Source of the DNA: Candidatus Hodarchaeota archaeon
GTDB taxonomy: Archaea; Asgardarchaeota; Heimdallarchaeia; Hodarchaeales; Hodarchaeaceae
Assembly: GCA_016840035.1 (NCBI GenBank)
Contig: JAEOTC010000159.1
Location: 1-40,688 of the forward strand
Length of the DNA stretch: 40,688 nt
Reading direction: 5' to 3'
The notes below the pieces were generated by a model that saw only the letters and a program-made list of their open reading frames with translations, did not search any database and was not told the origin of the DNA. Of the stretch, positions 1 through 28,374 are shown one piece after another; the stretch's first letter is position 1, and every line of letters begins with the position of its first letter. A program made the position numbers and the translations under genes.

Positions 1-1338
1 CGGTTTTTCTTTAAAAACATAATTAACAGAAAAATTACCACCTGGAGGCAGATTACTAAAGATCCACCGATATAGGGTTGAATCATGAGTAGGAATTCTC
101 ATAGAGCGAATATTTTGTAATGATTCCGCTTTATTTACTTTTAATTCTGGTGGAATTACATCTTCAATGAGAATTTCTTGAATATTTTCCCCTGTTGTAT
201 TAACAAAATCTAATTTTGCTTCTAAACTTTGATGTAATGAATGGTATAAGTTCAATGCTACTACTTGTCGCTCTTTCCTAAGAATGATTGATCTTTCTAC
301 TCTCTTTCGCAATACATATTCGATCTTTCCTTTCTCCCCTGCTACTAATTTCTCTGCCTTCCATGTGAAGACTGTTCCCTCATTAGTTTTCTTTCTGTCA
401 TCTAATTCAAAATTCGTTTGGAAATCAACAACTTCCCATCTATAAGGGATCCTATCAACAATCTCTATGTCCAGAAGATCCTCTTCATATTCATTTGTTA
501 TTTCAGTCCTGGCTGAATACTCAATATCTAACGTATCCGCAAGATTAATTTGATGTTGTTTTGAATCCTCTTTTGGTGTATGTTCAGATTTTTCGACACC
601 TTTATTGGGCTGTGATTTCTCATTATATTTTTCTGTGTCATTCACCTGTCTTTTCGTTTCGATACTAGTGTGTGGTGACATAAATCTGGTTTCTCCCCTC
701 TGATCCTTAACTACTGCATCACTTCGAATTTTCTTTTCAGTTTGTTTCCTTGCAGTTTTGGATACTGCAGCAAGTACTGCAAAAGAATCCATTTTAGAAG
801 GATCATCAGTTTTTAATTGAGGAATTAGGAAATCCTGACGATTGAAATCTAGAGTGGTATCAGTTGAGAATTCATTGCTCTGCAATGGAATTAGCCCTTC
901 TTCCTCTTCTAGGGGTAGAATTTTAATTTCTGGAAGATCTTCACCGATTTGAGCCTGTAAATTACGCCCTTCCTCGATTTCCTCTTCTCCTGTAGAAATT
1001 TTACGATCAAGAGCGTTTAAAGCCATTTTAAATTGATAGGTTGCGGATGTAAACCCATATCTTTTTCCTTTATCAACCAATATTTTCGCCGTATCAACAT
1101 CTTCAGTCATAAGGTGTCTAACTATTGCTTTACCATAACAACTTGCGGCTTTATCCATTTTTTTAAGCTCTAGATAAAAATCTCCCGCTATGGTAAGATA
1201 TTGCCCTGCTTTTTTTCTATCACCTTGTGAATCGAAGCATTTAGCTGTCGATTCGTAGATTTCAGCTGCAATTTCTAGAGAGTGAGTTGTTGCTGCCTCT
1301 GCTTCAGAAGCTAGTTTTTCACAGTCCGTATCTACCAT
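1..1338 (-). CDS. Partial ORF (runs off the left edge, >=446 aa): N-terminal alpha-SNAP/TPR-like helical repeats, acidic linker, tandem DUF11-like Ig/beta-sandwich domains
   Basis: Not in the ORF track. My translation from ATG at 1338 (GGGAG upstream) is open to position 1: MVDTDCEKLASEAEAATTHSLEIAAEIYESTAKCFDSQGDRKKAGQYLTIAGDFY..., then two repeats EITNEYEEDLLDIEIVDRIP...FTWKAEKLVAGEKGKIEY and FVNTTGENIQEILIEDVIPP...YRWIFSNLPPGGNFSVNY. Confidence 0.8.
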   Translation of the reverse strand, partial: MVDTDCEKLASEAEAATTHSLEIAAEIYESTAKCFDSQGDRKKAGQYLTIAGDFYLELKKMDKAASCYGKAIVRHLMTEDVDTAKILVDKGKRYGFTSATYQFKMALNALDRKISTGEEEIEEGRNLQAQIGEDLPEIKILPLEEEEGLIPLQSNEFSTDTTLDFNRQDFLIPQLKTDDPSKMDSFAVLAAVSKTARKQTEKKIRSDAVVKDQRGETRFMSPHTSIETKRQVNDTEKYNEKSQPNKGVEKSEHTPKEDSKQHQINLADTLDIEYSARTEITNEYEEDLLDIEIVDRIPYRWEVVDFQTNFELDDRKKTNEGTVFTWKAEKLVAGEKGKIEYVLRKRVERSIILRKERQVVALNLYHSLHQSLEAKLDFVNTTGENIQEILIEDVIPPELKVNKAESLQNIRSMRIPTHDSTLYRWIFSNLPPGGNFSVNYVFKEKP

Positions 1339-1354
1339 TTTCTATACTCCCTAC

Positions 1355-1738
1355 TTACTTAATTGCTAAAAAAGTGGATTTAATGATCAATACCTCTGAA
1401 ACTCGGGGTGTATAATCATCTAGCGGATCTTTATCATCATAAGGAATTTGTTGAAATGTCCGAGAGAATATTACCCAAGCGACTCTTTTGTTATCACTTG
1501 TAACAAATCGATTAATTTTCTGATAGGCGTCATCTGGATCCTGTGTAAAATATTGATGACAAAGATCTTTAACTTTCTTTAAAGAAGTCTCTTCATTATT
1601 TTGTGCATATAAATGCAAATATTCTAATAAATCGGCTTCTTTGGGATTTATTTTCTTTGCTTTCAGCAATTCGACAATTGTAGATTTATTTGTTAAAGAA
1701 TCCTTTGCTTCTGCAAATGTTATATTAATAAAGGGCAT
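1355..1738 (-). CDS. Divergent RNA polymerase Rpo4/RpoF (Rpb4)-like protein
   Basis: 127 aa; ITFAEAKDSL...ADLLEYLHLYA...SLKKVKDL resembles the Rpo4 N-terminal pattern (vTiaEvkeiL...aLeYl.kfa); C-terminal half weak; 16 nt from the next ORF. Confidence 0.5.
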   Translation of the reverse strand: MPFINITFAEAKDSLTNKSTIVELLKAKKINPKEADLLEYLHLYAQNNEETSLKKVKDLCHQYFTQDPDDAYQKINRFVTSDNKRVAWVIFSRTFQQIPYDDKDPLDDYTPRVSEVLIIKSTFLAIK

Positions 1739-1973
1739 AAATTCTTCACAATTAGTGCAATTGATTCCAGTTTGTTAGTATAGATGAATATTCGTTTAGA
1801 TTTGATAATCGATTTAACGGTTGAATCTACAAATCACTGAATTAAATATATAGCTAATCACCTAGAATATTCGATAATTTTTCCTAAAAGAATTATTATT
1901 TCAAGTGATTTCCTTTATTTTTCAGAAAAATATCTTAAATTATCACTATTATGCGTTTAAATTGGAGATCTAA

Positions 1974-2645
1974 GTGTCTGAGCTTCCACAGTGCCTTCAT
2001 GAATTGCAGGTTGTGCTTCAAAGCTGTACACGCAAAATTCTTGATCTTCCTCAAGGATATCGAAGAGCTGCCATTCTTATTCCACTGTTTCGGAAAAATA
2101 ATGAATGGAATATACTTTTTACGAGAAGAACTGAGAAAGTGTCCCATCATAAGAATGAAATATCTTTTCCTGGGGGGAGATTTGACGAATCCCAGGATGA
2201 GAATTTAGTACAGACCGCCTTACGTGAAGTAAATGAAGAAATTGGATGTGAAAAGATTCTAGTTTTAGGGGAATTGGATGATATTTTCACAGTCAGTGAA
2301 TTTGTTGTTACCCCAATTGTAGGTTTTGTAGCTGAAGATTTCGATTTAGAGTGTTCAAATCATAATTCTGACGAGATAGAATATGTTTTAAAGGTTGCAA
2401 CAAATAAAATATCTAATATTGACCATTACTGGACAGAAGCGGTACCGTATGAAGGAGGAAGATTATTCCATGTTCCTTTTTTTAACTATGAGGGAGAGAT
2501 TATCTGGGGTGCTACAGGACGAATTCTCGCTAATTTTCTGAATGTTTTAACCAAACTCGACAACCAGTGTAGGACAAATATGATCGGTATAGACCAGTGG
2601 AAAGTCCAAGAGAATAAAGATTATTCCAATCTGATAAAGAATTAG
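1974..2645 (+). CDS. CoA pyrophosphatase (Nudix, NudL/Pcd1 family)
   Basis: AAILIPL, LFTRR...HKNEISFPGG (NuCoA motif), Nudix box GG...TALREVNEEIG, IWGATGRIL. Confidence 0.92.
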   Translation: MSELPQCLHELQVVLQSCTRKILDLPQGYRRAAILIPLFRKNNEWNILFTRRTEKVSHHKNEISFPGGRFDESQDENLVQTALREVNEEIGCEKILVLGELDDIFTVSEFVVTPIVGFVAEDFDLECSNHNSDEIEYVLKVATNKISNIDHYWTEAVPYEGGRLFHVPFFNYEGEIIWGATGRILANFLNVLTKLDNQCRTNMIGIDQWKVQENKDYSNLIKN

Positions 2646-5492: not shown

Positions 5493-7298
5493 TTGTCTGA
5501 ATCATTATTTGATATTGTTGTCATTGACACTAACTTTTTCATTTCCTTATTAAACGCAGGAGTCTCTGATTCTCTAATGCCTCAACTTCAGAATATCGGG
5601 CAATCAGTTGGAATGGAGATCATGGTACCGGATGAAATTCCGAAATCAGATATTCCAGGTCGATTTAGGCAATTACGCCAGCTCATTCCTAAATATATAC
5701 GCACTGAACCAGTTAAACGAACATCGAAGCTCTGGAATCGAACTGCGGAATATGCGGTCCAAGAACGGATGGTTCGAGTAAATGATGACCCTGCAGATAT
5801 AGACGTAGTAATACTTGCAAAAAAATTCAGTTTGAAAGATAATAACAAGGTAGCTCTAGTCTCTGACGATGAAGGAGTAGCTCGAATAATCAAGGAGAAT
5901 AAGGTATTCAAAGGAATCGAACATCTTTCATGCGGTTCATTTGTCTCAATATTGGCTGCATCTGTATCTGATCAAAAAATGCGTAAACTCTTAGATCAAA
6001 CAGTTGAAAGAGTCTTTCGTGCTTCATGGAGTTACAAAAAGAAAACTCGACGATATATTGATGTGGCAATGCTGATTGATGATTTAACTGATACGGCGAG
6101 GTTCGTTAGATCAGCAGCTGAGGTTGGAGCTGATAGTAGTTTAGCGGAAATCGAAAAAGAAATCGTTGCAATTGCTCCAAAACACGAACCCGAAGTATTA
6201 AAGCCTGAGGATGGGTTAATAATTGCTCAACAGCTTGTTTTAAAGGCTCGTGGAACAAGAGAAACATATCATATTCTACAAGCGGAAGAAATCCTCCTTG
6301 AAATTCTTGCAAAAAGCTCAGAACTAATTTACTCTATAGATGGTTTAGAGCAGCGAGTTATTGTTGAGAGAATGATTAGATCTGAACTATTTGAGCACCA
6401 TAGCTGGCTTCTTGATTATAGAATATCACGTAATCAGATTGTGGAAGCATTAGTCCATGCCGAAGCATGCCGAATATACATGAATTTCATTTCTGTTGGG
6501 AGAGAAGCTATCGAGAATCTAATAGCCTTGCAAGGTTTACTGTATTTGCTTTTAGGAAAATATGAAAGAGCTCTTGAGCTTTTCAAAGCAGTTCCACAAA
6601 TGGATCCTGAACTTTCATCGACACAAATTCTTGGTTTAGCTGTAGCATTGATAGCTACTCAACAGCAAAACGAGGCGGCATTACTCATTAAAAGAAATGT
6701 GGAGATGATTGAAGGTATAATTACATCTATGCATGCCTACGCAAATGATCTTTATTCTCATGACCAGCGTGAACTAGCAATCAATATTCTGAAATTTCTT
6801 GTAAAGAATTTTAGTAAACAAGAAGAAGTTGACCGTTCAATCTACCGTTTATTTGTCCTTACAAGACTTCGCCAGGATTTAGTATCAGGTGAGGCCAAGA
6901 TTAACAATATATTCAAGAAAAGATTAGTAAATAGAGGAAAAGATGATTCCAAGAAGGGGATACCTAAGAGTTTCATGAATAAATTGCCAATAATGTTATC
7001 AACAGGTGAAGATCCAAAGGAAATAGAACAGTTTAAAGGATTTTATCATATTCTTGATTTGGTTGAAAATAAAGAAAAAGATGAGATTTTAGCTGTTGCT
7101 TGGAATGAGAGTAATAATTCTACTTGGTTGTTGAACTTCGATTCTGCATACAAACCTGCCTTAGAGGAAAGTGTCAAAATTAAAATTACTAGTGGAAAAA
7201 TTACCAAAATAAAGAAAGCGAAAAGAACAGATCCGTATCGTGCAACTTTGAGTTTTGAATCTCCCACAATTCAACCTGAACTGGTTAAGCCTTGGTAA
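5493..7298 (+). CDS. PIN-domain ribonuclease fused to TPR-like repeats and a C-terminal beta-rich domain
   Basis: VVIDTNFF, PDE, ADIDVVILAK and LVSDDEGV acidic PIN motifs; TPR-like LQGLLYLLLGKYERALELFKA; TTG start with GGGAG upstream. Confidence 0.8.
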   Translation: MSESLFDIVVIDTNFFISLLNAGVSDSLMPQLQNIGQSVGMEIMVPDEIPKSDIPGRFRQLRQLIPKYIRTEPVKRTSKLWNRTAEYAVQERMVRVNDDPADIDVVILAKKFSLKDNNKVALVSDDEGVARIIKENKVFKGIEHLSCGSFVSILAASVSDQKMRKLLDQTVERVFRASWSYKKKTRRYIDVAMLIDDLTDTARFVRSAAEVGADSSLAEIEKEIVAIAPKHEPEVLKPEDGLIIAQQLVLKARGTRETYHILQAEEILLEILAKSSELIYSIDGLEQRVIVERMIRSELFEHHSWLLDYRISRNQIVEALVHAEACRIYMNFISVGREAIENLIALQGLLYLLLGKYERALELFKAVPQMDPELSSTQILGLAVALIATQQQNEAALLIKRNVEMIEGIITSMHAYANDLYSHDQRELAINILKFLVKNFSKQEEVDRSIYRLFVLTRLRQDLVSGEAKINNIFKKRLVNRGKDDSKKGIPKSFMNKLPIMLSTGEDPKEIEQFKGFYHILDLVENKEKDEILAVAWNESNNSTWLLNFDSAYKPALEESVKIKITSGKITKIKKAKRTDPYRATLSFESPTIQPELVKPW

Positions 7299-7305
7299 GG
7301 AAATA

Positions 7306-8298
7306 TTAGACCATAGTGTAATCAGCATCGTTCCAAGTCTTGCGTAATTTCTCAATTTGATCTGCAAGCGTGCTGGTTTCAATAAAATTTGGTAAATGTT
7401 GCTCGATTGGACTCCTGAATTCTTCTTTGTCCATAATTAAAAGGGATATTAACTTAGGTGATACTACCTCAAAGTATTTGTTCCACGTTTCTAAGTTCGG
7501 ATGAACTATATTTGATACTTCCTTAGGGTTACGTTGAGGGATCACTGGATGCCAACCATGATCTTTCTCAATAATTCCTCGAAGACAAATCTTCGATAGT
7601 GAAGCAGCGACAATAACCTCTTTATTTAGATCTCGAAAAATCTTCGCAATTGTAACTGATCCAATTTTGTTTAAGATTCTCCCATCTACTCGTATCATAT
7701 CTGCACCAAATACAGCTGCTTCTGCACGCTGTGCAAACTCATGAATCGCTAAATCAATCCCCAATACTACATTTTTGAATCCCGCATTAGCTAAAGTATA
7801 AGCTGTTCTCTCTCCTTCCTTTAAAGGTCTAGATTCTAATATATAAACCACTTTATCAGTAAATCCTTCATGAGCAACTTGTAAAAGAGCCTTTATTACA
7901 GTTGAGGAATGGGAAAAGGTTAATATAGATTTTAAAGGTCTTAAAATTTTAACAAGAGTCTCTTGAGTTTGTTTTTCTCCAATTCTTAACTGCTCTCTTC
8001 TTGTAGCGAATATCATTTCGATATTTGGTTTAGGATCGCCATTCTCTAGTCGATGAGAATCTATAAGCTGTACAAGTCTGACGAAAATGGGTAAAAGCGC
8101 GTTTTCAATCGTTGCCATTGGATGAGTGTCTAATAGTAGCTGAATTGCTGTTTTCAAGAACGATCGTGAGATTTTATCACTCGAAGTCAGACACTCTTGC
8201 TTTAATGCTATTAAACAATTTTGTGCTATCTTAGCTGCCCCACTATGAGTATCGCTATGAATAGTTTCCACATCTTTTAGAAAAGTCTTTGATAGCAC
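7306..8298 (-). CDS. IF-2B family protein (aIF-2B / eIF2B regulatory-subunit-like)
   Basis: HSGAAKIA, HPMATIENAL, ILTFSHSSTV, ESRPLKEG, FGADMI, NKIGS, YFEVV; lacks the catalytic Cys of R15P/MTR-1-P isomerases. Confidence 0.85.
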   Translation of the reverse strand: MLSKTFLKDVETIHSDTHSGAAKIAQNCLIALKQECLTSSDKISRSFLKTAIQLLLDTHPMATIENALLPIFVRLVQLIDSHRLENGDPKPNIEMIFATRREQLRIGEKQTQETLVKILRPLKSILTFSHSSTVIKALLQVAHEGFTDKVVYILESRPLKEGERTAYTLANAGFKNVVLGIDLAIHEFAQRAEAAVFGADMIRVDGRILNKIGSVTIAKIFRDLNKEVIVAASLSKICLRGIIEKDHGWHPVIPQRNPKEVSNIVHPNLETWNKYFEVVSPKLISLLIMDKEEFRSPIEQHLPNFIETSTLADQIEKLRKTWNDADYTMV

Positions 8299-8468: not shown

Positions 8469-9164
8469 CTAACGAGATTCGTATCTAGTATGGATTAACT
8501 GATAGTTTTTTGCTAAATCTCCTAGTCTGTGTGCTTCTTCAGGCGTCAAGTGATAAGAGTTAGATTCACCTATCTTATTCGTTGCTTCAATATATGCGAA
8601 TGATGCCCTATCCACAAGACGCTCTGCATTTTTATGATAGCCAGTATCCCCTGTATAAGCCAACCATTTTTCTTTTGATCGGAAAATTGCATAACCTAAG
8701 GAAGGAACTTCATCAGTACCTCCAATGCCAATTATTGACCCCTGATGCTGCATTTGATAACTTTCGACCTCTGTGGCTTCATTAAGCTCCACTTTGTCTC
8801 CATCTGTTAACTTAACATGTTCAAACGGGTAAGAAAGAGGATTTTTCTGGACGGAAAGGAAAGAATCTAGGATAGCATCAATTTCAATACTACCTTCTGG
8901 TGAATAAACACGAACAGGATGACTATGGTTAAGCATACACAAAAATCCTAGGAAGGAATAGAGTCCACCAGAGTGATCATAATGTGAATGAGTAATAAAA
9001 ATATGAATCGGCTTATTAATTGGAAACGATGTCAATTTCTCAACTATATCCCGTATTGTTCCATCTCCAATATCTAATAACATTAGAAAGTTTTCATCGG
9101 TCACAAGAATTTGAGTCGCTATTCCAGCCGTGGAATAAAGAACCTCATGCCTCATTGGGATCAA
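8469..9164 (-). CDS. RNase Z-like metallo-beta-lactamase phosphodiesterase (short form)
   Basis: LLDIGDG, THSHYDH (HxHxDH), YTGDT, EAT, HLTPEEA, LIHT; no flexible-arm segment seen. Confidence 0.85.
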   Translation of the reverse strand: MIPMRHEVLYSTAGIATQILVTDENFLMLLDIGDGTIRDIVEKLTSFPINKPIHIFITHSHYDHSGGLYSFLGFLCMLNHSHPVRVYSPEGSIEIDAILDSFLSVQKNPLSYPFEHVKLTDGDKVELNEATEVESYQMQHQGSIIGIGGTDEVPSLGYAIFRSKEKWLAYTGDTGYHKNAERLVDRASFAYIEATNKIGESNSYHLTPEEAHRLGDLAKNYQLIHTRYESR

Positions 9165-9167
9165 CCT

Positions 9168-10220
9168 TTATTCTGGAAATGAATCCTGTTCTAACAATTT
9201 TTCAATTAAATTACATCGTAGCGCGATTTCCGCTTGTATCCCTGTTTCTCCTCCAAAAATATCCCCCATATGTTGAATATTGAGTATACTCATTAGTATC
9301 ATTAATGCCAGATGAAAATTGATGGGAATATAAGTTTTGGAATAATAATCACGAAGACTAGATTGATTGTGTGCTAATATCTCTTTATAACCTGTCAGAA
9401 ATGATTTTATGTTCATGGCTAATTTGGTTAATGATCTATCACTTCTGTACTGATCCACTGCTTCAACCGCGAAGAAATTACATATATCTTCCAGTCGATC
9501 ATGCTCAAAAGAACCATCAAGATATTCAGGATCAATAATATGAGTTTGAATCATTGGATTCCTCCCAACTTTTACATCGAAAATTAAATTGCCAGGATGA
9601 AAATCCCCGAAAGAAGGACTACCAGAATTTTGTGATGCTTCCTCTGCGCGGGGTATAACTCGATTAAAACAGTTATGCAAATGTGTTTTCTTATCAGTAG
9701 AGATTGGCGCAGAATCAAGACTGCGTGTAATAAGTAGTTTATATTTATCAAACCAAACTCGATTATTCTCAATGCCATGGAATGCAGCCAAACCTCGACC
9801 TGCATACCGGTATTTTTGTGGTTTAGGAATTTTGGAATCACGGAAAACATCTCCTTGTATTCCTTCCATAATAATTACACTCCCTGAAAAGAAAATTACC
9901 GAAGCGGACGCTATACCCATTTTTGAGTATTGCATTAACCGTTTATCCAATAGGTTGATTCGATTAACTACATCTAAAGCCTGATCTGATTGATCATAGA
10001 TTTTAACAGCAATACTAGCATCATCTGAACCAACATCAGAATCAAGAGAAACCCTGACAAGATGAATACCTGTTGCGCCTAATTTCTTTTCTACTGTAAT
10101 GTTTTTAACTTCAATTTTACTAGGCGCCTTCTTATAGGCTTTTTCCAAGTGAGATACGAAATAATCTGAAAACCCCTCAATTATCCTCATCAAAACAATT
10201 TGGATGCGTTCTTGACTCAT
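9168..10220 (-). CDS. Aminoglycoside-phosphotransferase-like / protein-kinase-like fold kinase
   Basis: IAVKIY, IIMEGI, GRGLAAFH, Brenner motif FGDFHPGNL, IIDPE. Confidence 0.85.
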   Translation of the reverse strand: MSQERIQIVLMRIIEGFSDYFVSHLEKAYKKAPSKIEVKNITVEKKLGATGIHLVRVSLDSDVGSDDASIAVKIYDQSDQALDVVNRINLLDKRLMQYSKMGIASASVIFFSGSVIIMEGIQGDVFRDSKIPKPQKYRYAGRGLAAFHGIENNRVWFDKYKLLITRSLDSAPISTDKKTHLHNCFNRVIPRAEEASQNSGSPSFGDFHPGNLIFDVKVGRNPMIQTHIIDPEYLDGSFEHDRLEDICNFFAVEAVDQYRSDRSLTKLAMNIKSFLTGYKEILAHNQSSLRDYYSKTYIPINFHLALMILMSILNIQHMGDIFGGETGIQAEIALRCNLIEKLLEQDSFPE

Positions 10221-10443: not shown

Positions 10444-11364
10444 CTAGTACCAATTCAGAACAGTATTCAATCGCATAAAGGTATCGGTTTCTAGCTGATG
10501 AATTTTAACGCCTTTTTGAATTTCGATATGAAAGTCAGTTGTCCCCACTCCAACCCATGGACCGGAATCCATGAACTTTAATGAAATTTCGTGTCTTTGC
10601 TCTAGAGTTTCCACTCCTCGAATAACATTCTCCCCTTCGATAATAATGTGTTGAAGTCCCTCTATTCCAGATGTCTCTAAAGAGATCCTAATCTTTAAAA
10701 AGGAAATATTCAATCGGTGTTGTGGATCATCTGGAGAAATGGCCAATTTTTTGATGAGTCGTGCACGAATTGGTTTTGAAGAAACTTTTTCTGGGGTTGA
10801 ACTTAGATAGGGAAGTAGTTCTTCTTTTAACAATGGTTCAGCAAGTGGTTTCATTTCTAGAAGAATTTTGTTTATCGATGGGAGGTAAATAAAACGATAG
10901 TTATCGCGCAATGACCGTGTTCTTGATGAAAATTCAATAACCAGTAAAAGAGCATGTTCACAAAGGTCGATTACAGAAAATTTTGCGGTAATTTTGCTTG
11001 CATCGTTTGGTAAGAGCTTTACAAGATCAATCGTTCTTGGTCTTAGCCGAATCTTTGATAGTGATAATGGATTTGATAGTTGATATACTTGCCACCAAAC
11101 ATTTGTAAGAGTTAGAATCCCTGCAAGTTTCTGTAGATGATTCAACCTATTGGAGCTGAGTGATTCAAGGATATTTTGAGTCTTTTCGAGGTTCTCTGCG
11201 GATAACAATCCGTTAGGTTCCAGTTTAATGGAGGTGTTTTGCCACTTGCCAATTATTTCTGAAAAGACGTATGTAGGAAATTGATCCAAATAACTAGTGT
11301 CAATATCCAATAGAATCATCCTTGTAGATTTTGTGCTATTTTTATTAGGTTCGAACTTGGTCAA
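10444..11364 (-). CDS. Uncharacterised protein; candidate CENP-N/Chl4-like (see findings); alternative start at 11319
   Basis: 306-aa ORF overlapping or abutting the Rab gene stop; motifs FPTYVFSEIIGKW, WWQVYQLS, EHALLLVIEF, IRARLIKKL, IIIEGENVIRGVETL. Confidence 0.75.
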   Translation of the reverse strand: MTKFEPNKNSTKSTRMILLDIDTSYLDQFPTYVFSEIIGKWQNTSIKLEPNGLLSAENLEKTQNILESLSSNRLNHLQKLAGILTLTNVWWQVYQLSNPLSLSKIRLRPRTIDLVKLLPNDASKITAKFSVIDLCEHALLLVIEFSSRTRSLRDNYRFIYLPSINKILLEMKPLAEPLLKEELLPYLSSTPEKVSSKPIRARLIKKLAISPDDPQHRLNISFLKIRISLETSGIEGLQHIIIEGENVIRGVETLEQRHEISLKFMDSGPWVGVGTTDFHIEIQKGVKIHQLETDTFMRLNTVLNWY

Positions 11365-11893
11365 AGAAAGATTGAGCTAATCGCTTGAATGCTTCATCAA
11401 CTTGGAGGTTTTCTTTCGCCGAGGCAGATATATACCCTTGAGCTCCGATTTTTTTTGCAAGGGCTTCGCCCTCATCATCCTCTACCATACGATAGTCTTC
11501 AAGATCTGTTTTATTTCCAACTAATATAGTTTGGATTGCTGACCTTGTAGAATCAGGTTGACTACAAAATTCCATTAGTTCTTTATGCCAAGGATCAACA
11601 ATATTCCTTAGCGTTTCAGCTCTTGTAACATCAAATACAAACATGGCTAGATGAGCACCTTTAAAGAACATGTGGCGTATTGCAGCAAACCGCGCTTGAC
11701 CCCCAATATCATTGATACTAAGGGTCACTGTACGACCATCATTTAATTTGATTAGTTTTGATGATATATCTAAACCAACTGTAAGTTGATACGAATTTCT
11801 AAACTTGGCATGGACAAATTGGGAAATTAAGGAAGTTTTACCCACACCAGGGTCACCTAGAAGGACTAATTTCAGTACTAATTTTTGTTTCAT
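11345..11893 (-). CDS. Rab-like small GTPase (probable start ATG 11893, MKQKLVLK; ORF extends to 11974)
   Basis: G1 GDPGVGKTS, G2 YQLTVG, G3 DIGGQ, G4 GNKTD, G5 SAK; RabF-like RFAAI, FFKGA, FVFDVT; no C-terminal Cys. Confidence 0.95.
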   Translation of the reverse strand: MKQKLVLKLVLLGDPGVGKTSLISQFVHAKFRNSYQLTVGLDISSKLIKLNDGRTVTLSINDIGGQARFAAIRHMFFKGAHLAMFVFDVTRAETLRNIVDPWHKELMEFCSQPDSTRSAIQTILVGNKTDLEDYRMVEDDEGEALAKKIGAQGYISASAKENLQVDEAFKRLAQSFFDQVRT

Positions 11894-12097: not shown

Positions 12098-12856
12098 TTA
12101 TTTTTTAGCGATTCTTCTTATTATCCAAATTCTATGGAAGAATTCAAACTTAAATCCGAATTTCATCCCAAGATAAACCCAACGAAATGTATCTGTAGCT
12201 GGTTTAATCCGCGATCGACGTCTTTGTCCCTCATACGTTGTAGTGACGGGAATTTGAGCTATTTTGATGTCTTTCATCCATGCAATAAACATGACTTCAG
12301 TTTCTAAATCAAACTTCCTTGAAGTAAGTCCATAGTCGATTATTTTCTTCAAACTTTCCACTTTGTAGACCCGATACCCACATTGAAGATCATCAATATT
12401 CCATTTTAACCAATATTTACACCAAGTCGAAGTAAGACGATTAGAAATTCTATTTATTGAAGGCATTTGGAAATACATTCTTCTTCCATTGACTATTCCA
12501 AGATCAGGGTTATTTTTTATGGTTGATATAAATTTTGGGATATCTCTGGGTTTATGTTGTCCATCTGCGTCAATTGTAAAAACCCATTTGATATTTGGCA
12601 TTTGTGAGATAATAGTCATGAAAGCTTTCCTTAAAATAAATCCTTTTCCTTGATTTTTCTTATTTTGGATCATTTTTACTCCTAAACGTTTTGCTAACAA
12701 TGGAGTATTATCACTTGACCCGTCATCTGCTATTAAAATCTGTTTTCTTTGGAAATAATTATCTAGTTGGAGGATTAACCCTTTTAATGCCTGTTCTTCG
12801 TTATAGGCCGGTAAAATTACCATGAATTCTTCTGTTGCCAATGGCGGGATCCTCAT
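12098..12856 (-). CDS. GT2 glycosyltransferase, DPM1/polyprenol-phosphate glycosyltransferase-like
   Basis: ILPAYNEE, DDGSSDNT, NQGKG, DADGQH, DLQCGYR, FDLETE. Confidence 0.92.
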   Translation of the reverse strand: MRIPPLATEEFMVILPAYNEEQALKGLILQLDNYFQRKQILIADDGSSDNTPLLAKRLGVKMIQNKKNQGKGFILRKAFMTIISQMPNIKWVFTIDADGQHKPRDIPKFISTIKNNPDLGIVNGRRMYFQMPSINRISNRLTSTWCKYWLKWNIDDLQCGYRVYKVESLKKIIDYGLTSRKFDLETEVMFIAWMKDIKIAQIPVTTTYEGQRRRSRIKPATDTFRWVYLGMKFGFKFEFFHRIWIIRRIAKK

Positions 12857-13221
12857 TGAAGAAATGTAAAATTCCTTTGAATTTGGAAATATTCTAAAGT
12901 TATTGGAAAACTTATTTATCAGTCCTAATTTGAATTTTGATTTATTTTTCTAAATAGTTTAATTCCTACTAGATTCATTAGGTATCCAAATTACGTATAA
13001 AAATTCATAACACGTAATTTTTTTCAGAAAGAATAAAAACAGATGTAAGAAGCCATCACACGGCGTATATGGACGAATTTGAAACATTAGTATTAGGTTC
13101 TAAATGAAATTGATAGAATTACGTTGATAATTCTGAAATACTAATGACACATTCAAATTTTCTCAAATTAATTCACATATGCCAATTATCATTGGAATTA
13201 AACTACATGCGGAGAATCGAG

Positions 13222-13947
13222 ATGGCAACGGACAAGTCTGTCTCTAAAATAGTACATGAACTTTTAGATCAGGATCCCTCTCTCGTACATGAACTTCAAC
13301 AAAGAAAGAGAGCTCAAAGAGAAATAGCGAAGAAAATCAAAGCTCAATTAATTGACAATGAAGAATTTTCTAATAAAGATCCAGTCAAGTTAGAAGGAAA
13401 TGTAGCGGTTGCAATTACACGATATCTGAAACGACTTCGTGAACAGCAAGAGGAGTTCCTTGGGGTAAAACGGGTTCAAAGTGTACTTAAAAGAGGCACA
13501 ACTGAAGTAATAGATGGGTTAAAGCATTATAAAATCAATATTTTTTCTGATAATGATGGTAAGGAAATATTGGATATAATATTTAAGCAGATAAAAAAAG
13601 ATGATCTGAATTCAGCCTATCTCAGTCAGAATAGTGTCGAATTATATGTAAAAAAGATGGCTGAGAACGGTTTCATTGAGACCATTAAAAATTTTAACGG
13701 AGTGGATCTAATTAAACTACATGATTCTCTTAGTCTTCTCCGATTAATGTTACCACAACAAGCCGCTGAAATTCCAGGTATTCTTGCTCATATTTCTTCT
13801 CTCCTAGCTGACCAGGCAATAAGTATCTATGATACAATGGTGCTTCATGAGGATCATCTCATAATTGTTTTTGTAATAAATGAGCAACATGCATCGAAAG
13901 CACGAGATATTTTATTGAAACTCAACAACGATATTTCAACAAATTGA
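13222..13947 (+). CDS. ACT-domain protein with helical N-terminus (archaeal family); probable start ATG 13222
   Basis: C-terminal ACT motif EIPGILAHISSLLADQAISIYDT...FVINEQH; GGAGA upstream of ATG. Confidence 0.75.
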   Translation: MATDKSVSKIVHELLDQDPSLVHELQQRKRAQREIAKKIKAQLIDNEEFSNKDPVKLEGNVAVAITRYLKRLREQQEEFLGVKRVQSVLKRGTTEVIDGLKHYKINIFSDNDGKEILDIIFKQIKKDDLNSAYLSQNSVELYVKKMAENGFIETIKNFNGVDLIKLHDSLSLLRLMLPQQAAEIPGILAHISSLLADQAISIYDTMVLHEDHLIIVFVINEQHASKARDILLKLNNDISTN

Positions 13948-13962
13948 GGGTAGGATTAGAAA

Positions 13963-14601
13963 GTGAAATTAATAATTCTAGGAGCACCTGGTTCGGGGAA
14001 AGGTACTCAAGCGAAATTTATAACCCAGTTGTATCGAATTCCACAAATAAGCACTGGTGATTTGCTGCGAGATGCGGTGAAACATGAAACACACCTTGGA
14101 TTGAAAGCTAAAGAGTATATGAATACAGGTACTCTAGTACCTGATGCTATTGTACTTGAATTACTGAAAGAACGATTGAATAAGGATGATTGTTCGGCAG
14201 GGTATATTCTAGATGGATATCCACGAAATATTTCTCAAGCAGATTCACTAGCGGAAATTACAAACATTGATCTTGTTATCAATATTAGTGTCGATCACAA
14301 GTTATTAGTAGAACGAATTACTGGAAGACGCACTTGTAAGGAATGTGGGGCGATTTTTCACATCCAGTTTAAACGTCCTTCAAAAGAAAACGTTTGTGAT
14401 AAGTGTTCGGGTGAGCTGTTTCAACGAGCTGATGATACCGAAGAAACTGTAAAGAAACGCCTCAATACTTATGAAAAACAAACTAAGCCATTAATTGACC
14501 ATTACTCATCACAAGAACTACTTCAGACACTTATTAGTGATGGTACGATTGAAGAAATGCGTCAAAAGGTCAAAGATCTTCTGAAAAATACATTTCCATG
14601 A
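13963..14601 (+). CDS. adk: Adenylate kinase (bacterial/eukaryotic-type, Zn-binding LID)
   Basis: GAPGSGKGT, ISTGDLLR, LDGYPRN, LID CKEC...CDKC, QRADD. Confidence 0.97.
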   Translation: MKLIILGAPGSGKGTQAKFITQLYRIPQISTGDLLRDAVKHETHLGLKAKEYMNTGTLVPDAIVLELLKERLNKDDCSAGYILDGYPRNISQADSLAEITNIDLVINISVDHKLLVERITGRRTCKECGAIFHIQFKRPSKENVCDKCSGELFQRADDTEETVKKRLNTYEKQTKPLIDHYSSQELLQTLISDGTIEEMRQKVKDLLKNTFP

Positions 14602-16676: not shown

Positions 16677-19577
16677 GTGAAATCAATGAAATTCCCAAAT
16701 AAGATCATTCCATTAAGTATAATTTTGCTGTTTATTGTCGGAATCTATGGTCAAACCCAACAGACTTCTTTTTCCTTCAACCAGGACTTGTTGAATCAAG
16801 TTCAATTACCAAAGGAGGATAATAATCAGATATCGAATACACGTTTGCCAAATTTTAAGTCAGTTTCTGAAGTGACTTCAGGACCTACAACTTTAACCAC
16901 AGACGCAGATACTTATGCTCCAGGTGATTGGGTAACAATTACAGCCGAAAGCAATACTGATGATATGAATGGATCGCTAGAATGGCGAGTAGAATCACCA
17001 ATTAGCGAGGTAAGTTTTGATTTCAAGAGCTATTATCAGGATGTATTTGTAAATCCTGAGTTTGAAACTGCAATAACAACAGATTGGGAAAATGATGGTT
17101 TTGATTTTATTTCAGCCGCTGATGGATATTTAAATATCACAGAAGAAGCTGATCCTGATTTAAATGCAGTCGAAGTCTATAACAATAATTCTGCTCTAGC
17201 TACAGATACGAAATACCGTGTAACTTTTGATTATTTTTCTCAAGGAGAAAATATGTTAATTAATCCGAGCTTTGAAACTGGAAATCTTACAGGATGGTCT
17301 GGTGTCGGAACAGCGGAAAATATCTCAATAATTAATGAAGCAAAAAACGCAAGTGAAGGGAATTATTATGCCAAAATCAACGCTACTGAAGGATTTATCT
17401 TAAACCAAACAATACCAATTACTGGACAATCTGATGGACGTTCATTTACATTTACTGCACGAGCGACTGGAAATACGGATGCAAATTACTGGCAATTACG
17501 ATTGGAAGCAATAAATTCGTCTGGAGACGTTACTGCTTCTAGACAATCAGCAGATTCAAGAAATCTCGCGACTGATGAGGATGGGTATATCACAATAAAT
17601 CTGGATTGGGCTCTTCCTGAGAATACAACGTCATTAAAAGCAATATTCTTCGGAAGAGATGGTGGTAGTGATGCGGATGGTTATTATACGGGATGGCTTG
17701 ATAACTGCTTGCTAGCTGAAGATCCGACTGTTTTAATATTTTCATATGGTTCAGATGGAAACTGGGAAAATAATACATTAATTGCAGGTACTCATGAATG
17801 GGAATCTGTCGAATTTATTTTCGAAACTTTTGAAAATATTCCTTCTATCACTAAAACATTGAGATTCATCTTAAAAGATTCTAATTCTTATTCAAATAAC
17901 AAAACTTCTTATTGGCTTATTGATAATATTGCAGTTAATATCGTCACCAAGACCGAAGACTTCACTGGCCCGATTTCTAATAATGAGGCGCGAATTTCAG
18001 GATATGTAAATTCAACATTCTTCCATCGTGATTTCCGTGAAGAGTTATCTAGTACATTTATCATTGATATAGACTCTCCAGAGAATACGAGTGTTGCATC
18101 AGAAGCTCGAGCAGAAATAAAAGTGCAGTTACCATCTCACCAGGTATATATGGGAACCTGGATCTTTGTTTTTAAAATACATCAAATTGATACTGCTGAA
18201 CCCCCCACTAGAGTTGCTACAAAAACGGTAAATATCTCCTTCGTAGTGGAAGAACCACTTAATTTTGTTGTGCAGGATTATTATCTTCTTCGTGGTTCCA
18301 CGAATAGAACGGAGAACAATGAAACAATTTTTACGGAATATTTCGAACAAGAAACTGAGATTGAATCATTTTCTCCAGGAGATAATGTTACAGTTCTTGG
18401 ATTTTTAGCAGCCAATTCGACTCCAACCGAATGGTATGACCTTGAATATCTTGATATCAGTGCTGTTTTGACGTCATACATGTGGGAAAGCACTTGGGAA
18501 TCAGAGGAAGTTATATTCTGGGATGTATTTAGCCTCATTCCCTACGATTCATTAGGTAAATACGTTATTGATGGAAATTTCACCTCCCCTCTAAATAATA
18601 CTCAGACCATTGGACTTAACTTCCAAATCCCTAACCGTGGGATATTTGGAAACATTTCAGCGAATATCACCATGAGTCTTACTGGAACAAATGTAAAACC
18701 TAATGGAGTGGGAGATCCACTGTTATCATTAAATGTACCAATTTCCTTACCACGGGTTGAATTTAGAATTAATGTCACAGAAGAAAATTTACCTGAAACT
18801 TCTTACTATTTAACCGATTATATTGGTGGAAATGTTACTTTAGAATTTCTTAATGTCAATAATACGCTGGAAACGAATTATCCGAATAGAAATATTACTA
18901 CAGACCTTCAAATTCCTATCAAAGACATTGATTTAGTTCTATTTCTAGGTAGAAACGAAAGTAGTGAAATTGAGATAGCACAGGAATTTCATTATCATTC
19001 CATTGGGAATAACACAATAGTTTGGTTTGATTACATTGATCCAAATGTTGAGATTGGAATGTATACTTTTCATATACGGTGGAATACTCCATTTTCACAA
19101 AACGCTACGAATTTTGCTGATGTTCCGATTTCTGAAATATCCTTGAATGTTCAGGGAACACTTGAAATCGTATCACCTGGATCAACCCCGACTGTCAAAC
19201 AAGGGGAACAGATAATTGTGAATTTCACTGTCCAACTTCTCGAGACTACAAAACAAATCGGTGGATTGGATCTAATTTCAAGACTAGTTGATGAAGAAAC
19301 TGAAGGTAATCTCATTGTTTATGAACAACAAGGTGTCTACTACATAGATATTGTTGTGGGGAAGACAATGGAAGCCAAGAATTACAATATAGAAATTTTG
19401 GTCTCTGGTAGAACAGAAGCAATTGGTACTATTGAATTTACAGTTCAAGAGCTAGAAGTTGAGCCAGAAAACCAATTAGATTTCTTTGAAATACTCGTAA
19501 ATGTTGCTGGATTCGGAATCTTTGTCGCTCTCGGAGTTATTGTAGTTGTCTTAATGTTCAGACTCAATAAATCTTGA
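16677..19577 (+). CDS. Large secreted, C-terminally anchored surface glycoprotein with CBM4/9-like galactose-binding-fold domains
   Basis: Signal peptide (KIIPLSIILLFIVGIYG); NPEFET and NPSFETGNLTGW...WLDNC motifs; about 30 N-x-S/T sequons; C-terminal TM VAGFGIFVALGVIVVVLMF. Confidence 0.85.
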   Translation: MKSMKFPNKIIPLSIILLFIVGIYGQTQQTSFSFNQDLLNQVQLPKEDNNQISNTRLPNFKSVSEVTSGPTTLTTDADTYAPGDWVTITAESNTDDMNGSLEWRVESPISEVSFDFKSYYQDVFVNPEFETAITTDWENDGFDFISAADGYLNITEEADPDLNAVEVYNNNSALATDTKYRVTFDYFSQGENMLINPSFETGNLTGWSGVGTAENISIINEAKNASEGNYYAKINATEGFILNQTIPITGQSDGRSFTFTARATGNTDANYWQLRLEAINSSGDVTASRQSADSRNLATDEDGYITINLDWALPENTTSLKAIFFGRDGGSDADGYYTGWLDNCLLAEDPTVLIFSYGSDGNWENNTLIAGTHEWESVEFIFETFENIPSITKTLRFILKDSNSYSNNKTSYWLIDNIAVNIVTKTEDFTGPISNNEARISGYVNSTFFHRDFREELSSTFIIDIDSPENTSVASEARAEIKVQLPSHQVYMGTWIFVFKIHQIDTAEPPTRVATKTVNISFVVEEPLNFVVQDYYLLRGSTNRTENNETIFTEYFEQETEIESFSPGDNVTVLGFLAANSTPTEWYDLEYLDISAVLTSYMWESTWESEEVIFWDVFSLIPYDSLGKYVIDGNFTSPLNNTQTIGLNFQIPNRGIFGNISANITMSLTGTNVKPNGVGDPLLSLNVPISLPRVEFRINVTEENLPETSYYLTDYIGGNVTLEFLNVNNTLETNYPNRNITTDLQIPIKDIDLVLFLGRNESSEIEIAQEFHYHSIGNNTIVWFDYIDPNVEIGMYTFHIRWNTPFSQNATNFADVPISEISLNVQGTLEIVSPGSTPTVKQGEQIIVNFTVQLLETTKQIGGLDLISRLVDEETEGNLIVYEQQGVYYIDIVVGKTMEAKNYNIEILVSGRTEAIGTIEFTVQELEVEPENQLDFFEILVNVAGFGIFVALGVIVVVLMFRLNKS

Positions 19578-24751: not shown

Positions 24752-25657
24752 TCAATTATTATCCAATATAAAAAACTCGATTGTGTCAATGGGTTTCATG
24801 ATTTTTTTGAGTTGTTTGATTACTTCGTGAGGGATATCCACAGCATTAGGCGTACAAGCTGCAGCCATCCGATGTCCACCCCCTCCAAAATGCTTAGCTA
24901 CTATTGAAACATCATAATTAGACTGTTCGACTTTAGTTACCCTAAAACTGATTCTTATAGGTTCGGAAACTGATTTTTCATAAATCAATGCAATAATAAT
25001 TGCCCCATTGTGAAAAAAGGGTTTGAAAACTTCTTTAGCTAGTTTTCCTGGGATATAATTCCTTGAATCGATGAGTACAACTCGAGGTAATATAGGGTGA
25101 TGTTCTAAAAAGTTAGTAATAACATTCTGAGTCTTCTGATGAATAGAAACAACCTTTTCATGCCGGTTCTCCAACCATTGAGTCTGGAGAATACTTTTTC
25201 CCAAGGACGCAAGTTTTTCACTAAGTTCTCTAAGAAAGGATGAATCTTCCACATTCATGTTTAGAACGATATCAAGAGGCTTATATTCAACTGGGAGAAG
25301 AGCAGTGTCCGCGAGATGGCCTAATTCCTTAATTTCTTCAGCGATCGGATCATTAGAAAAGGCTAAATGATCAAAAACTAATTCTGTTGCTGAAGCAGCT
25401 CTTGGTAGTACAACATCCCTCTCCGTGAGACGATTAGTCTCCGTTAAGTTATCATAGTTAGTTTTATGGTGATCAATGTTTACCGAATGAGAAACTTTGG
25501 GTAAATCGCAAGTATAATCAGCTGGGAAGTTCTCTTCGGAAAGTTGCTGTGCTTGTTTAATAGTAGCAAACGTGATATCAATTGAAGAACCAAATTTTCG
25601 TATAAAAAGCGCTGCACAGCATATTCCATCGAAATCGGTATGTGTGACTATTCTCAC
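24752..25657 (-). CDS. DHH/DHHA1 phosphoesterase (NrnA-like)
   Basis: HTDFDG, IDHH, ISFR, GGGGH motifs; GTG start overlaps the upstream TGA. Confidence 0.9.
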   Translation of the reverse strand: MRIVTHTDFDGICCAALFIRKFGSSIDITFATIKQAQQLSEENFPADYTCDLPKVSHSVNIDHHKTNYDNLTETNRLTERDVVLPRAASATELVFDHLAFSNDPIAEEIKELGHLADTALLPVEYKPLDIVLNMNVEDSSFLRELSEKLASLGKSILQTQWLENRHEKVVSIHQKTQNVITNFLEHHPILPRVVLIDSRNYIPGKLAKEVFKPFFHNGAIIIALIYEKSVSEPIRISFRVTKVEQSNYDVSIVAKHFGGGGHRMAAACTPNAVDIPHEVIKQLKKIMKPIDTIEFFILDNN

Positions 25658-28374
25658 AGTTCTTTACCACATTTATAGCAATATTGGGAATTGTTATTGT
25701 GACGAGGAGTACGACAACGAGAGCATATTTCCCCTCGTTCAATAGTTCTGGTTCCAACATGAGTTTGCGGTTTTTTATATTGCATGGTAAGTTGTTCTTG
25801 CAGTGTTAGTCTGGGTTTATTTCGACGAGATGATATCCAATAATATACGACCGCAAATATTACAAAACTCGAGAGGATAAAGAAGAAAAAGAATTCTTCT
25901 CCAGCTGGATCATTCACTGCTAGAAAATAGAGACCATTTGATGGAGTAGTTCCTTCTATATGAAGATTTAACCAAAGGATCGCAGTTCCAAGTTTTTTAG
26001 GTTTCCAAGTTCCTACATAGGTATTGTGAGATTTTTCAAAACTTATTTGTGAATATGATCCATTTGCTTCATGTATTGTACCATTGAAGTTTGTATCTGG
26101 AGCTACGGATTGAAAAGTAATTTGAATTTTTGTTGATGTTCCCAAACTTGGATTAGTTGCCAGATTAATCTCCATGGGGATTTCATGGGTTCTAATCAAC
26201 CATCGAAAAGTCTGGGAGGCAATATAGAAATTTTCCTCCGCAATAGGAGAAAAGTAGCTTATATCCGAGAATGGCTCTAAACCTCCAAAAACAACGACTT
26301 TTCCATTACTTTCAGGATCATGCCAGTATCCTGCAATTGAAATATCATCGGGATCATTTTGCGGAAATTTTGCGGTAGCTAATACTTCAGCATATCCTCC
26401 CGGGCTTACTGTAACAGATGTACCATTGAAATCGAACATTAAATTTTCCATATTCTCGATTGGACTTGAAGGAGCTAGAGAGGCCTGTGAAAACCGAGTC
26501 ATATGTGGTTTAGAGGGATCGTCATCGACAGAAAGGTCATAAGGTTCTAAAAGCTCATTTATGGAGTTACGATTAGAAAGATACTCAGTCTGGCCCTCAA
26601 TTAAGGAGGGGTACGAAAGAATAAGTAAGGAATGCCCTTCATCTACCCATTTCTGAATAATGGCAATATCATCTGTTGTTAAATCCATTTCTATGTCAGC
26701 TAGTACAAGAATTTCAAAATTCTCTAAGTCTTCTGCAGAAATGTTTCCCTGAGAAGAAGAAATTCCTTGAAGGGGTCCAACAACTGATAATACAGAATTA
26801 GAACGAATCGCTCCTGTTACTTGCATCCCAAAAATGTTTTCCATAAGAAAATGTAATTGACTAAATCTACCTGTTGGACCATCAGGGATAAAACTATCAT
26901 TATCATAACCCTGATAGAAAAGAATACGACTTCCAGGATATCGATTCTCCAGATGAACTGGAAGAATTCCTTTGATTAAATAAGAATTTGTCAAATTGTG
27001 TTTGTTAGTTTTTTTGTAAATAAAATTAAAATCAAGAGTTCCTTCCCATGTCTCCATAGGTAAGTCTTTAGGAATTGAGAGTGAGATCTGGAGTTTATTA
27101 AAACCTTTATAGATTGGGATTGAAAGATTTGAGCTCACATTATTTGGAACTATTACATGAATAGGTAATGAAGTGCTAATATCCATGCTTGATAAGTTAC
27201 AATTGAGTGAGGAATACACTCCTAGGTTATAAGTTTGATCTTGACCGTTTATGGATTGACCGAAATAGATGAAGTCAGATGAAATCTTTCGTGGAGTAAA
27301 TGTGAGTAAAGGTAATTCATTTAAACGTTGTAAAGCAGTATAGGCCAGCTCTACATTAAGAACACCGTTACCTTGTTGAGATGGAGAGACATTTTCAATA
27401 AAGCTTGCCGAAGAAAGCAGAGCAGTCTTTATGGTCATCGGAGAAATATCTGGAAACGCTTGTTGTAAGAGTGCAACAGTTGCCGTTACAAATGGAGCAG
27501 CGAACGAGGTTCCTGAAACATTTTGCGACTCATCTCTATTGACATATGAGGGAATATAAACACCCGGGGCCACAATATCAGGGCCCATATTACCTTCCGG
27601 TCGCGGGCCTACTGAGGAACTATAGGGAATATAGGTTTGATTATATGTCATGCCGACAGCAATTGCTTCATTGAAGATAGCAGGTGAAGTAATACTACCC
27701 CCATATGGGCCACTATTTCCTGCTGCAACAACAAGTGAAATATTCTTTTTAACTATAGTTGAAATTAGTGTCGAGTTAAGAACATTTATATCTGATGCTC
27801 CGAGTGAAGCATGAATGATTGAAACATTATTTGTCAAAGCATACCTTAGACCGGCCTCTATATTTTCTATAGTTGGAATACCTGATTCATCAGTAACTTT
27901 TATACTTAATAAACCAGCTTTGGGAGCAATTTTTGCAATGATACTCGCTACTAGAGTGCCATGGCCAATTTGATCGGAGACAGACGCATTTGATTGGTCT
28001 ACATTAATACGGTCCAAAATTGTGTTTGGATGAATCCAATTGGAATCATTTATCCCAGAATCCAGAACAGCAATAGAAACATCTTCTCCTGTTATATCTG
28101 GATTGTTTATTGGATTAATTATGCTTAACTTCTCTTCAAAACTCTCATTAATATTTAGAGCTGCTATTGAAAGGGGTGATTTAATTGAAAGTAAATCGGA
28201 AGAAATAGAATTCATTTGATTGGAAAGATTGGAGGTTTCTTGGAATATATTCTGATTAGATGGAGTGAATACTAGGGTAAACATAGGTTTAGGAACAAAA
28301 TTGCTTAAGAGGGGGAAAGTGAAGAATAGTAGGAAAATAAGGTAGTTTTTGTGCTGATATCGAATTTTTCGCAT
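25654..28374 (-). CDS. Membrane-anchored S8 subtilase with site-1-protease-like architecture and C-terminal zinc ribbon
   Basis: Signal peptide; triad VLDSG/GHGT/GTSFAAP and oxyanion AAGN; GATase-like (GIFT) domain; TM [20 protein letters not shown]; CSRC...CYKC. Confidence 0.9.
   Translation of the reverse strand: [906 protein letters not shown]

Follow-up and report, generated by a model that had tools for sequence, protein, structure and literature searches.

The window analysed here is the whole 40,688-nucleotide stretch of contig JAEOTC010000159.1 from a Candidatus Hodarchaeota archaeon (assembly GCA_016840035.1). Its minus strand carries a gene, referred to below as LN-like, whose product is, with a probability of roughly 0.6, a member of the RdgC/CENP-L/CENP-N superfamily specific to Asgard archaea, namely a DNA-binding clamp working with a dedicated GTPase. 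The initial annotation of this region had proposed a full-length archaeal homologue of the kinetochore protein CENP-N/Chl4, based on a series of short motifs matched to the human protein. The evidence presented here comes from two predicted structures, from the conservation and charge of the protein, and from a Rab-like GTPase gene located directly upstream.

Gene model and domain organisation

A minus-strand open reading frame was present at 10444-11364 as initially annotated (306 aa when counted from a TTG at 11364), but its start was probably placed too far upstream. Judging from aligned sequences, translation most probably begins at the ATG at 11319, giving a protein of 291 aa (10444-11319, minus strand), because approximately 75 database homologues (286-296 aa) all begin at the same methionine. 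The 15 extra codons of the TTG version reach into the 3' end of the GTPase gene upstream, and the protein collection lists the product from this window at 291 aa. The two genes are probably co-transcribed. The layout of the gene pair and of the encoded LN-like protein was as follows:

11345-11893, minus strand: Rab-like small GTPase gene, 182 aa from an ATG at 11893 (Pfam Ras, PF00071, 1.4e-43)
11320-11344, minus strand: spacer of 25 nt between the GTPase stop codon TAA (11345-11347) and the LN-like ATG
10444-11319, minus strand: LN-like gene, 291 codons plus stop, single copy in the genome
11110-11319, minus strand: N-terminal helical domain, residues 1-70, with helices at 16-27, 44-53 and 56-69
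10735-11109, minus strand: LNHD-like domain with a TBP-like curved beta-sheet, residues 71-195, basic, presumed nucleic-acid-binding surface
10447-10734, minus strand: C-terminal alpha/beta domain, residues 196-291, acidic, the most conserved part of the protein
10540-10698, minus strand: family signature motif LKIRISLETSGIEGL..IIIEGENVIRGVETLEQRHEISLKFMDSGPWVGVGT, residues 208-260, in invariant or nearly invariant alignment columns

Conservation was concentrated in the C-terminal domain, with a majority fraction of 0.76 versus 0.57-0.61 for the remaining domains. The signature within it reads ETSGxEGL...G.NVIRG.ETLEQRHE...SGPW (also written ETSGxxGL...RGxETLxxRHE...GPW). This region was conserved Asgard-wide, and matches in distant lineages fell mainly within it (profile positions ~200-275). 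The net charge of the C-terminal domain was -5. The LNHD-equivalent domain was basic throughout the family, with a mean net charge of +8.9 and ten conserved Lys/Arg positions.

Predicted fold and structural neighbours

The resemblance of CENP-L/N to RdgC and TBP is already known, and the kinship with RdgC has been published. Reference entries used for comparison were PF13092 and PDB 7XHN_L, 7PKN_L and 4IT3 for CENP-L/Iml3/Fta1; PF05238 and PDB 6EQT, 7XHN_N and 6QLF_N for CENP-N/Chl4; and PF04381 and PDB 2OWL and 2OWY for RdgC, a bacterial recombination-associated DNA ring.

An AlphaFold2 model of the window protein, built from 33 family members, reached a mean predicted local distance difference test score (pLDDT) of 81.8 and a predicted template modelling score (pTM) of 0.80. 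When this model was searched against the PDB with Foldseek, the 18 best matches were all CENP-N, CENP-L, Iml3 or Chl4 (E 3.6e-6 to 3.2e-4, probability 1.0), RdgC came next at 7e-4, and nothing else fell below E 0.03. A many-chain comparison returned Z-scores of 9.2-11.1 for CENP-L/Iml3 (ten chains), 8.3-8.6 for RdgC, 6.8-7.8 for CENP-N and 5.7-6.5 for Chl4.

As a check on robustness, an Asgard-wide alignment of 39 sequences was used to model a distant member, which belongs to another Asgard family, shares 19% identity and lacks an adjacent GTPase gene. The pLDDT of this second model was 86.1, with all five models at 82-86. The 26 best Foldseek matches were again confined to CENP-L/Iml3, CENP-N/Chl4 and RdgC (E 7.1e-8 to 1.9e-4, probability 1.0). 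Scores in the VIA comparison were 13.6 (191/207 residues), 13.1 and 12.2 for CENP-N, 12.3 for Chl4, 11.9 for CENP-L, 10.8 for Iml3 and 10.6 for RdgC, followed by a drop to 7.3. In this second, better model the N-terminal helical domain was also aligned, a domain which RdgC and Iml3 do not have.

Because two models gave the same exclusive top families, the assignment to the RdgC/CENP-LN fold superfamily is reproducible at the level of predicted structure. The protein is predicted to have the LNHD and C-terminal dimerisation domain fold of CENP-L/Iml3, the RdgC fold, and a TBP-like curved sheet with a basic face. The C-terminal domain (residues 196-291) aligned with the C-terminal parts of CENP-L, Iml3 and RdgC, the modelled range reaching residue 291, and as modelled it corresponds to the CENP-L/N dimerisation domain. 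The initial annotation had named the lack of a significant structural match to CENP-N/L, or a better match to an unrelated family, as a finding that could overturn it; a match to CENP-N/L was present, and the annotation was not refuted on this ground.

In both models the leading kinetochore proteins scored 1.5-3 Z units above RdgC, the only other family among the top matches. In an alternative explanation, the LN-like protein would be an RdgC-type DNA ring protein of prokaryotes that has no particular tie to the kinetochore, and CENP-L/N need not descend from the Asgard lineage. Bacterial RdgC, the RdgC-like proteins of Halobacteria and Bacillus, CENP-L/N and the Asgard family would then all have diverged anciently within a single superfamily, or would be convergent in part. 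We regard this explanation as possible but somewhat unlikely.

CENP-L/Iml3, CENP-N/Chl4 and RdgC are DNA-embracing dimers (PMC9235857). A DNA clamp is the function we infer for the LN-like protein, because the top structural families embrace DNA and because its LNHD-like domain is basic and its C-terminal domain acidic. By analogy with CENP-L/N and RdgC, the protein would pair through its C-terminal domain, and the pair would present two basic LNHD sheets embracing, or clamping, double-stranded DNA.

Sequence-level comparisons with CENP-N, CENP-L and RdgC

The motifs quoted from the window in the initial annotation (DQFPTYVFSEIIGKW, NVWWQVYQLS, EHALLLVIEF, RFIYLPSINK, PIRARLIKKL, LNISFLKIRI, IIIEGENVIRGVETL and GPW) were all found in the open reading frame. 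The human counterparts were genuine CENP-N, as a 71-residue bait composed of them retrieved only PF05238 proteins named centromere protein N, and their order was confirmed in the mammalian CENP-N consensus. The motif-level resemblance between the two proteins was not above chance when assessed by Pfam, PDB, BLASTP, shuffled sequences and hhalign.

No Pfam family matched the LN-like protein at E<=10, including PF05238, PF13092 and PF04381. Searches of PDB sequences using phmmer and the family profile returned no match, the only hit being a leucine-rich repeat protein at E 1.2. The best BLASTP segment against CENP-N paired WQVYQLS with WDVFQMS at E 1.1. Against both CENP-N and RdgC, local (Smith-Waterman) and semi-global alignment scores lay within -1 to +1 standard deviations of those of shuffled sequences, and searches of these two sets of sequences with hmmsearch --max were empty or insignificant. 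The RdgC Pfam model (PF04381) gave no hit at E<=10 against the whole genome translated in six frames.

Profile-profile tests were weak ones, the CENP-N alignment being limited to mammals, the RdgC alignment to enterobacteria, and both being shallow. Within these limits, the hhalign probability was 0.3% for the close-family profile against mammalian CENP-N. The Asgard-wide profile aligned to CENP-N with E 0.015 and a probability of 2.9%, as against 0.08% for the shallow enterobacterial RdgC profile, family columns 78-137 corresponding to CENP-N 80-139. That CENP-N segment matches the register of the second and third motifs of the initial annotation and is below any accepted threshold; the agreement is a hint, not evidence.

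Of the proposed CENP-N identity, the CENP-L/N-type fold stood, while membership of the CENP-N family was not shown by sequence and the window model was nearer to CENP-L. In the reading of the initial annotation, the protein would be a full-length CENP-N/Chl4 orthologue, recognising a specialised nucleosome and paired with a CENP-L-like partner. Against it stand the lack of a PF05238 hit, the greater closeness of the window model to CENP-L, the absence of a second paralogue in the genome, and the fact that the gene is linked with one for a GTPase and not for a histone. Overall we consider such an orthologue very unlikely.

Linkage to a Rab-like GTPase

The strongest contextual feature of the LN-like gene, its Rab-like GTPase neighbour, had been missed by the initial annotation. 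All G motifs of this protein were intact (GDPGVGKT, DIGGQ, NKTD and SAK) and it has no C-terminal Cys; GDPGVGKT, DIGGQ, NKxD and SAK were kept in all its orthologues. The best PDB matches of the GTPase profile were Ypt7/Rab7 (3.5e-40).

An intact G protein was encoded 20-69 nt upstream of the LN-like gene, on the same strand, at 26 of 27 loci, of which 20 came from species-representative genomes (20/20 with the GTPase) and seven were located via protein look-ups (6/7). The adjacency also held for LN-like homologues of approximately 30% identity in otherwise unrelated gene surroundings. The GTPase was 82-85% identical where its LN-like partner was 45-50% identical. Clear orthologues of the GTPase, scoring 229-370 bits where generic Asgard Rab-like paralogues levelled off at 160-180 bits, were confined to this order and always adjoined an LN-like gene.

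GTPase/LN-like adjacency recurred in at least four further Asgard families (f17, f26, f27 and f32), in co-directional or head-to-head orientation. Among 14 distant loci, a GTPase was adjacent in three (one co-directional, two head-to-head), and, by coordinates, the two genes are also neighbours in three additional f26 genomes. Prediction of a complex between the LN-like protein, GTP and the GTPase yielded ipSAE values of 0.29 and 0.18 against a mark of 0.32, without controls, and weighs neither way.

Because of this gene linkage, control of the clamp by the GTPase can be proposed: the clamp would be coupled to the nucleotide state of its dedicated Rab-like GTPase, which would load, release or localise it.

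Distribution and copy number

The LN-like profile matched 71 of 400 genomes of the phylum, with one match per genome in 69 of the 71. Every relative of the LN-like protein was annotated as a 'hypothetical protein', and the sources were Hodarchaeales or Heimdall-type Asgard metagenome-assembled genomes. No description of an archaeal or Asgard relative of CENP-L/N was found in the literature.

In the genome that contains the window (87% complete), one family member was found and no second paralogue. Weaker database matches (24-31% identity) were considered as a second 'L' or 'N' paralogue and rejected, because this genome has one copy and these matches are orthologues from other lineages with a GTPase neighbour of their own. 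The CENP-L-like partner foreseen by the initial annotation was therefore not supported. Two matches in another genome (G078) were likewise rejected as two copies, since they represent one gene split over two contigs.

A tandem duplication was observed in a relative from the same order (L064, contig C187 of genome G079). The GTPase gene (1724-2296, minus strand) is followed there by a first LN-like copy (743-1678, minus strand; 311 aa), in which the C-terminal signature is degenerate, and then by a second (3-737, minus strand; at least 245 aa), which keeps the signature and runs off the contig. The two copies are 27% identical to each other (E 7e-12). This case shows that duplication of the LN-like gene is readily tolerated, and is a lineage-specific parallel to the duplication proposed for CENP-L/N.

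Other neighbouring genes

Four lineages without a GTPase neighbour had a small gene encoding a Zn-ribbon and a winged helix directly upstream of the LN-like gene (L058:2868-3275, L055:2871-3356, L056:2621-3049 and L008:17-313). The products are 98-161 aa long, one of them matching Pfam PCI (1.3e-7) and FeoC (6e-7) and the others showing weak MarR/helix-turn-helix similarity. These proteins may be DNA-binding partners of the LN-like protein, and their repeated occurrence upstream counts in favour of a DNA clamp.

In the window, a gene for a 350-aa protein with a weak APH/kinase-fold hit (E 0.012) is located 223 nt downstream of the LN-like gene (9168-10220, minus strand), and beyond it lie a metallo-beta-lactamase-fold gene (8469-9164) and an IF-2B family gene (7306-8298). 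This trio occurs in the same order at a related locus, L001. The region upstream of the gene pair (12098-14601) contains genes for adenylate kinase (13963-14601, plus strand), a 267-aa protein with weak ACT-domain hits (13144-13947, plus strand) and a family-2 glycosyltransferase (12098-12856, minus strand), and their synteny ahead of the GTPase/LN-like pair is conserved in L001-L003.

A 906-aa S8 subtilase is encoded at 25654-28374 (minus strand), with a sub-threshold hit to the IFT52 GIFT domain (26.9 bits versus a cut-off of 27.2). At L001 and L005, an S8 subtilase gene (819-845 aa) is directly downstream of the LN-like gene, and in the window that place is taken by the kinase-fold gene and the subtilase gene is 14 kb away; this displacement would fit a local rearrangement if the subtilases of the window and of L001/L005 are orthologous. 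Two open reading frames of 966 and 601 aa (16677-19577 and 5493-7298, both plus strand) matched no Pfam family at E<=1e-5, and the former also occurs next to the LN-like region in L001. Finally, a 474-aa tetratricopeptide repeat (TPR) protein at 29213-30637 (minus strand) gave an ANAPC3 hit of 2e-24, with hits to several TTC21/IFT139 ARM-repeat models staying below their cut-offs; from these matches it is a putative eukaryote-like TPR scaffold.

Discussion

Several observations weigh against a GTPase-coupled DNA clamp of the RdgC/CENP-L/CENP-N superfamily. No sequence-level evidence ties the LN-like family to CENP-L/N or RdgC, so that the case for kinship depends on predicted structures, for which identities are 9-14% and TM-scores reach only 0.3-0.5. 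The most conserved segment of the protein is also the least confident part of the window model, residues 190-260 having a pLDDT of 49-75; in the second model, the corresponding residues exceed 89. Finally, the GTPase neighbour was missing in 10 of the 14 distant lineages sampled.

The resemblance could also be an artefact, AlphaFold2 having given a generic alpha/beta arrangement and the matches then reflecting a common fold and not kinship. With two models of proteins only 19% identical to each other retrieving the same exclusive set of families, we consider an artefact of this kind most improbable.

In a further explanation, the LN-like protein could primarily serve the adjacent GTPase, either regulating it or acting as its effector, as a GTPase-activating protein (GAP), a guanine nucleotide exchange factor (GEF) or an effector scaffold, its TBP-like sheet binding protein with DNA uninvolved. 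The 10 distant lineages just mentioned argue against it, having kept the LN-like protein without an adjacent GTPase, as do the strongly basic LNHD, the full two-domain match to DNA clamps only, and the lack of any known GAP or GEF family in any search. We judge this role unlikely.

The kinetochore is viewed as an invention of eukaryotes. On structural grounds, CENP-LN has been proposed to derive from a singleton that was related to RdgC and bound DNA as a homodimer (PMC9235857). As a conserved, single-copy protein structurally closer to CENP-L/N than RdgC is, the LN-like protein is a concrete, testable candidate for that singleton, and conservation of its family is highest in the order considered closest to eukaryotes. 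Specific ancestry of CENP-L/N from the LN-like family is plausible but unproven.

Fixed coupling to an active-type Rab-like GTPase is new for the RdgC/CENP-LN fold, and suggests a nucleotide-switched DNA clamp in archaea together with a possible origin of the pseudo-GTPase CENP-M. The fold of CENP-M is that of a small GTPase and most resembles Rabs; in the human constitutive centromere-associated network (CCAN), the protein lies against the dimerisation domains of CENP-LN (PMC9235857, PMC4080450). Because of this position of CENP-M, an ancestral GTPase/LN-like pair is attractive but speculative. In the most far-reaching version, the Asgard pair would be a surviving prokaryotic sub-module of the kinetochore, with a homodimeric LN-like clamp under an active Rab-like GTPase being duplicated during eukaryogenesis into CENP-L and CENP-N, and the GTPase becoming CENP-M; we hold this scenario to be quite unlikely. 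Should the kinship prove to be at superfamily level only, the LN-like proteins would still define a new Asgard-specific, GTPase-linked family.

Comparison with known systems

CENP-L/Iml3/Fta1, of the inner-kinetochore CCAN, has no detectable sequence similarity to the Asgard protein. Unlike CENP-L, the latter is a singleton without a CENP-N-type partner, and no other CCAN subunits are known in the organism. Its gene is paired with that of an active-type GTPase with intact motifs, and its C-terminal signature is specific to the Asgard family.

RdgC differs from the Asgard protein in having neither the N-terminal helical domain nor a GTPase linkage, and showed no sequence or profile signal; in structural comparisons it always ranked below CENP-L or CENP-N. 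RdgC-like proteins are also encoded in 'RdgC histone' operons of Halobacteria and Bacillus (PMC11390915). As points of likeness, they are archaeal and bacterial, have the RdgC fold with additional N- and C-terminal domains, and belong to a conserved operon that includes a DNA-binding partner. They are set apart, by description, in that their operon partners are a histone and a transmembrane protein as opposed to a Rab-like GTPase, and in that they belong to other lineages.

In CENP-M, as in the Asgard pair, a Rab-like G protein is coupled to an LN-like protein, the coupling being genetic in the Asgard case. The two differ in that CENP-M has lost its G motifs, whereas the Asgard GTPase has all of them intact.
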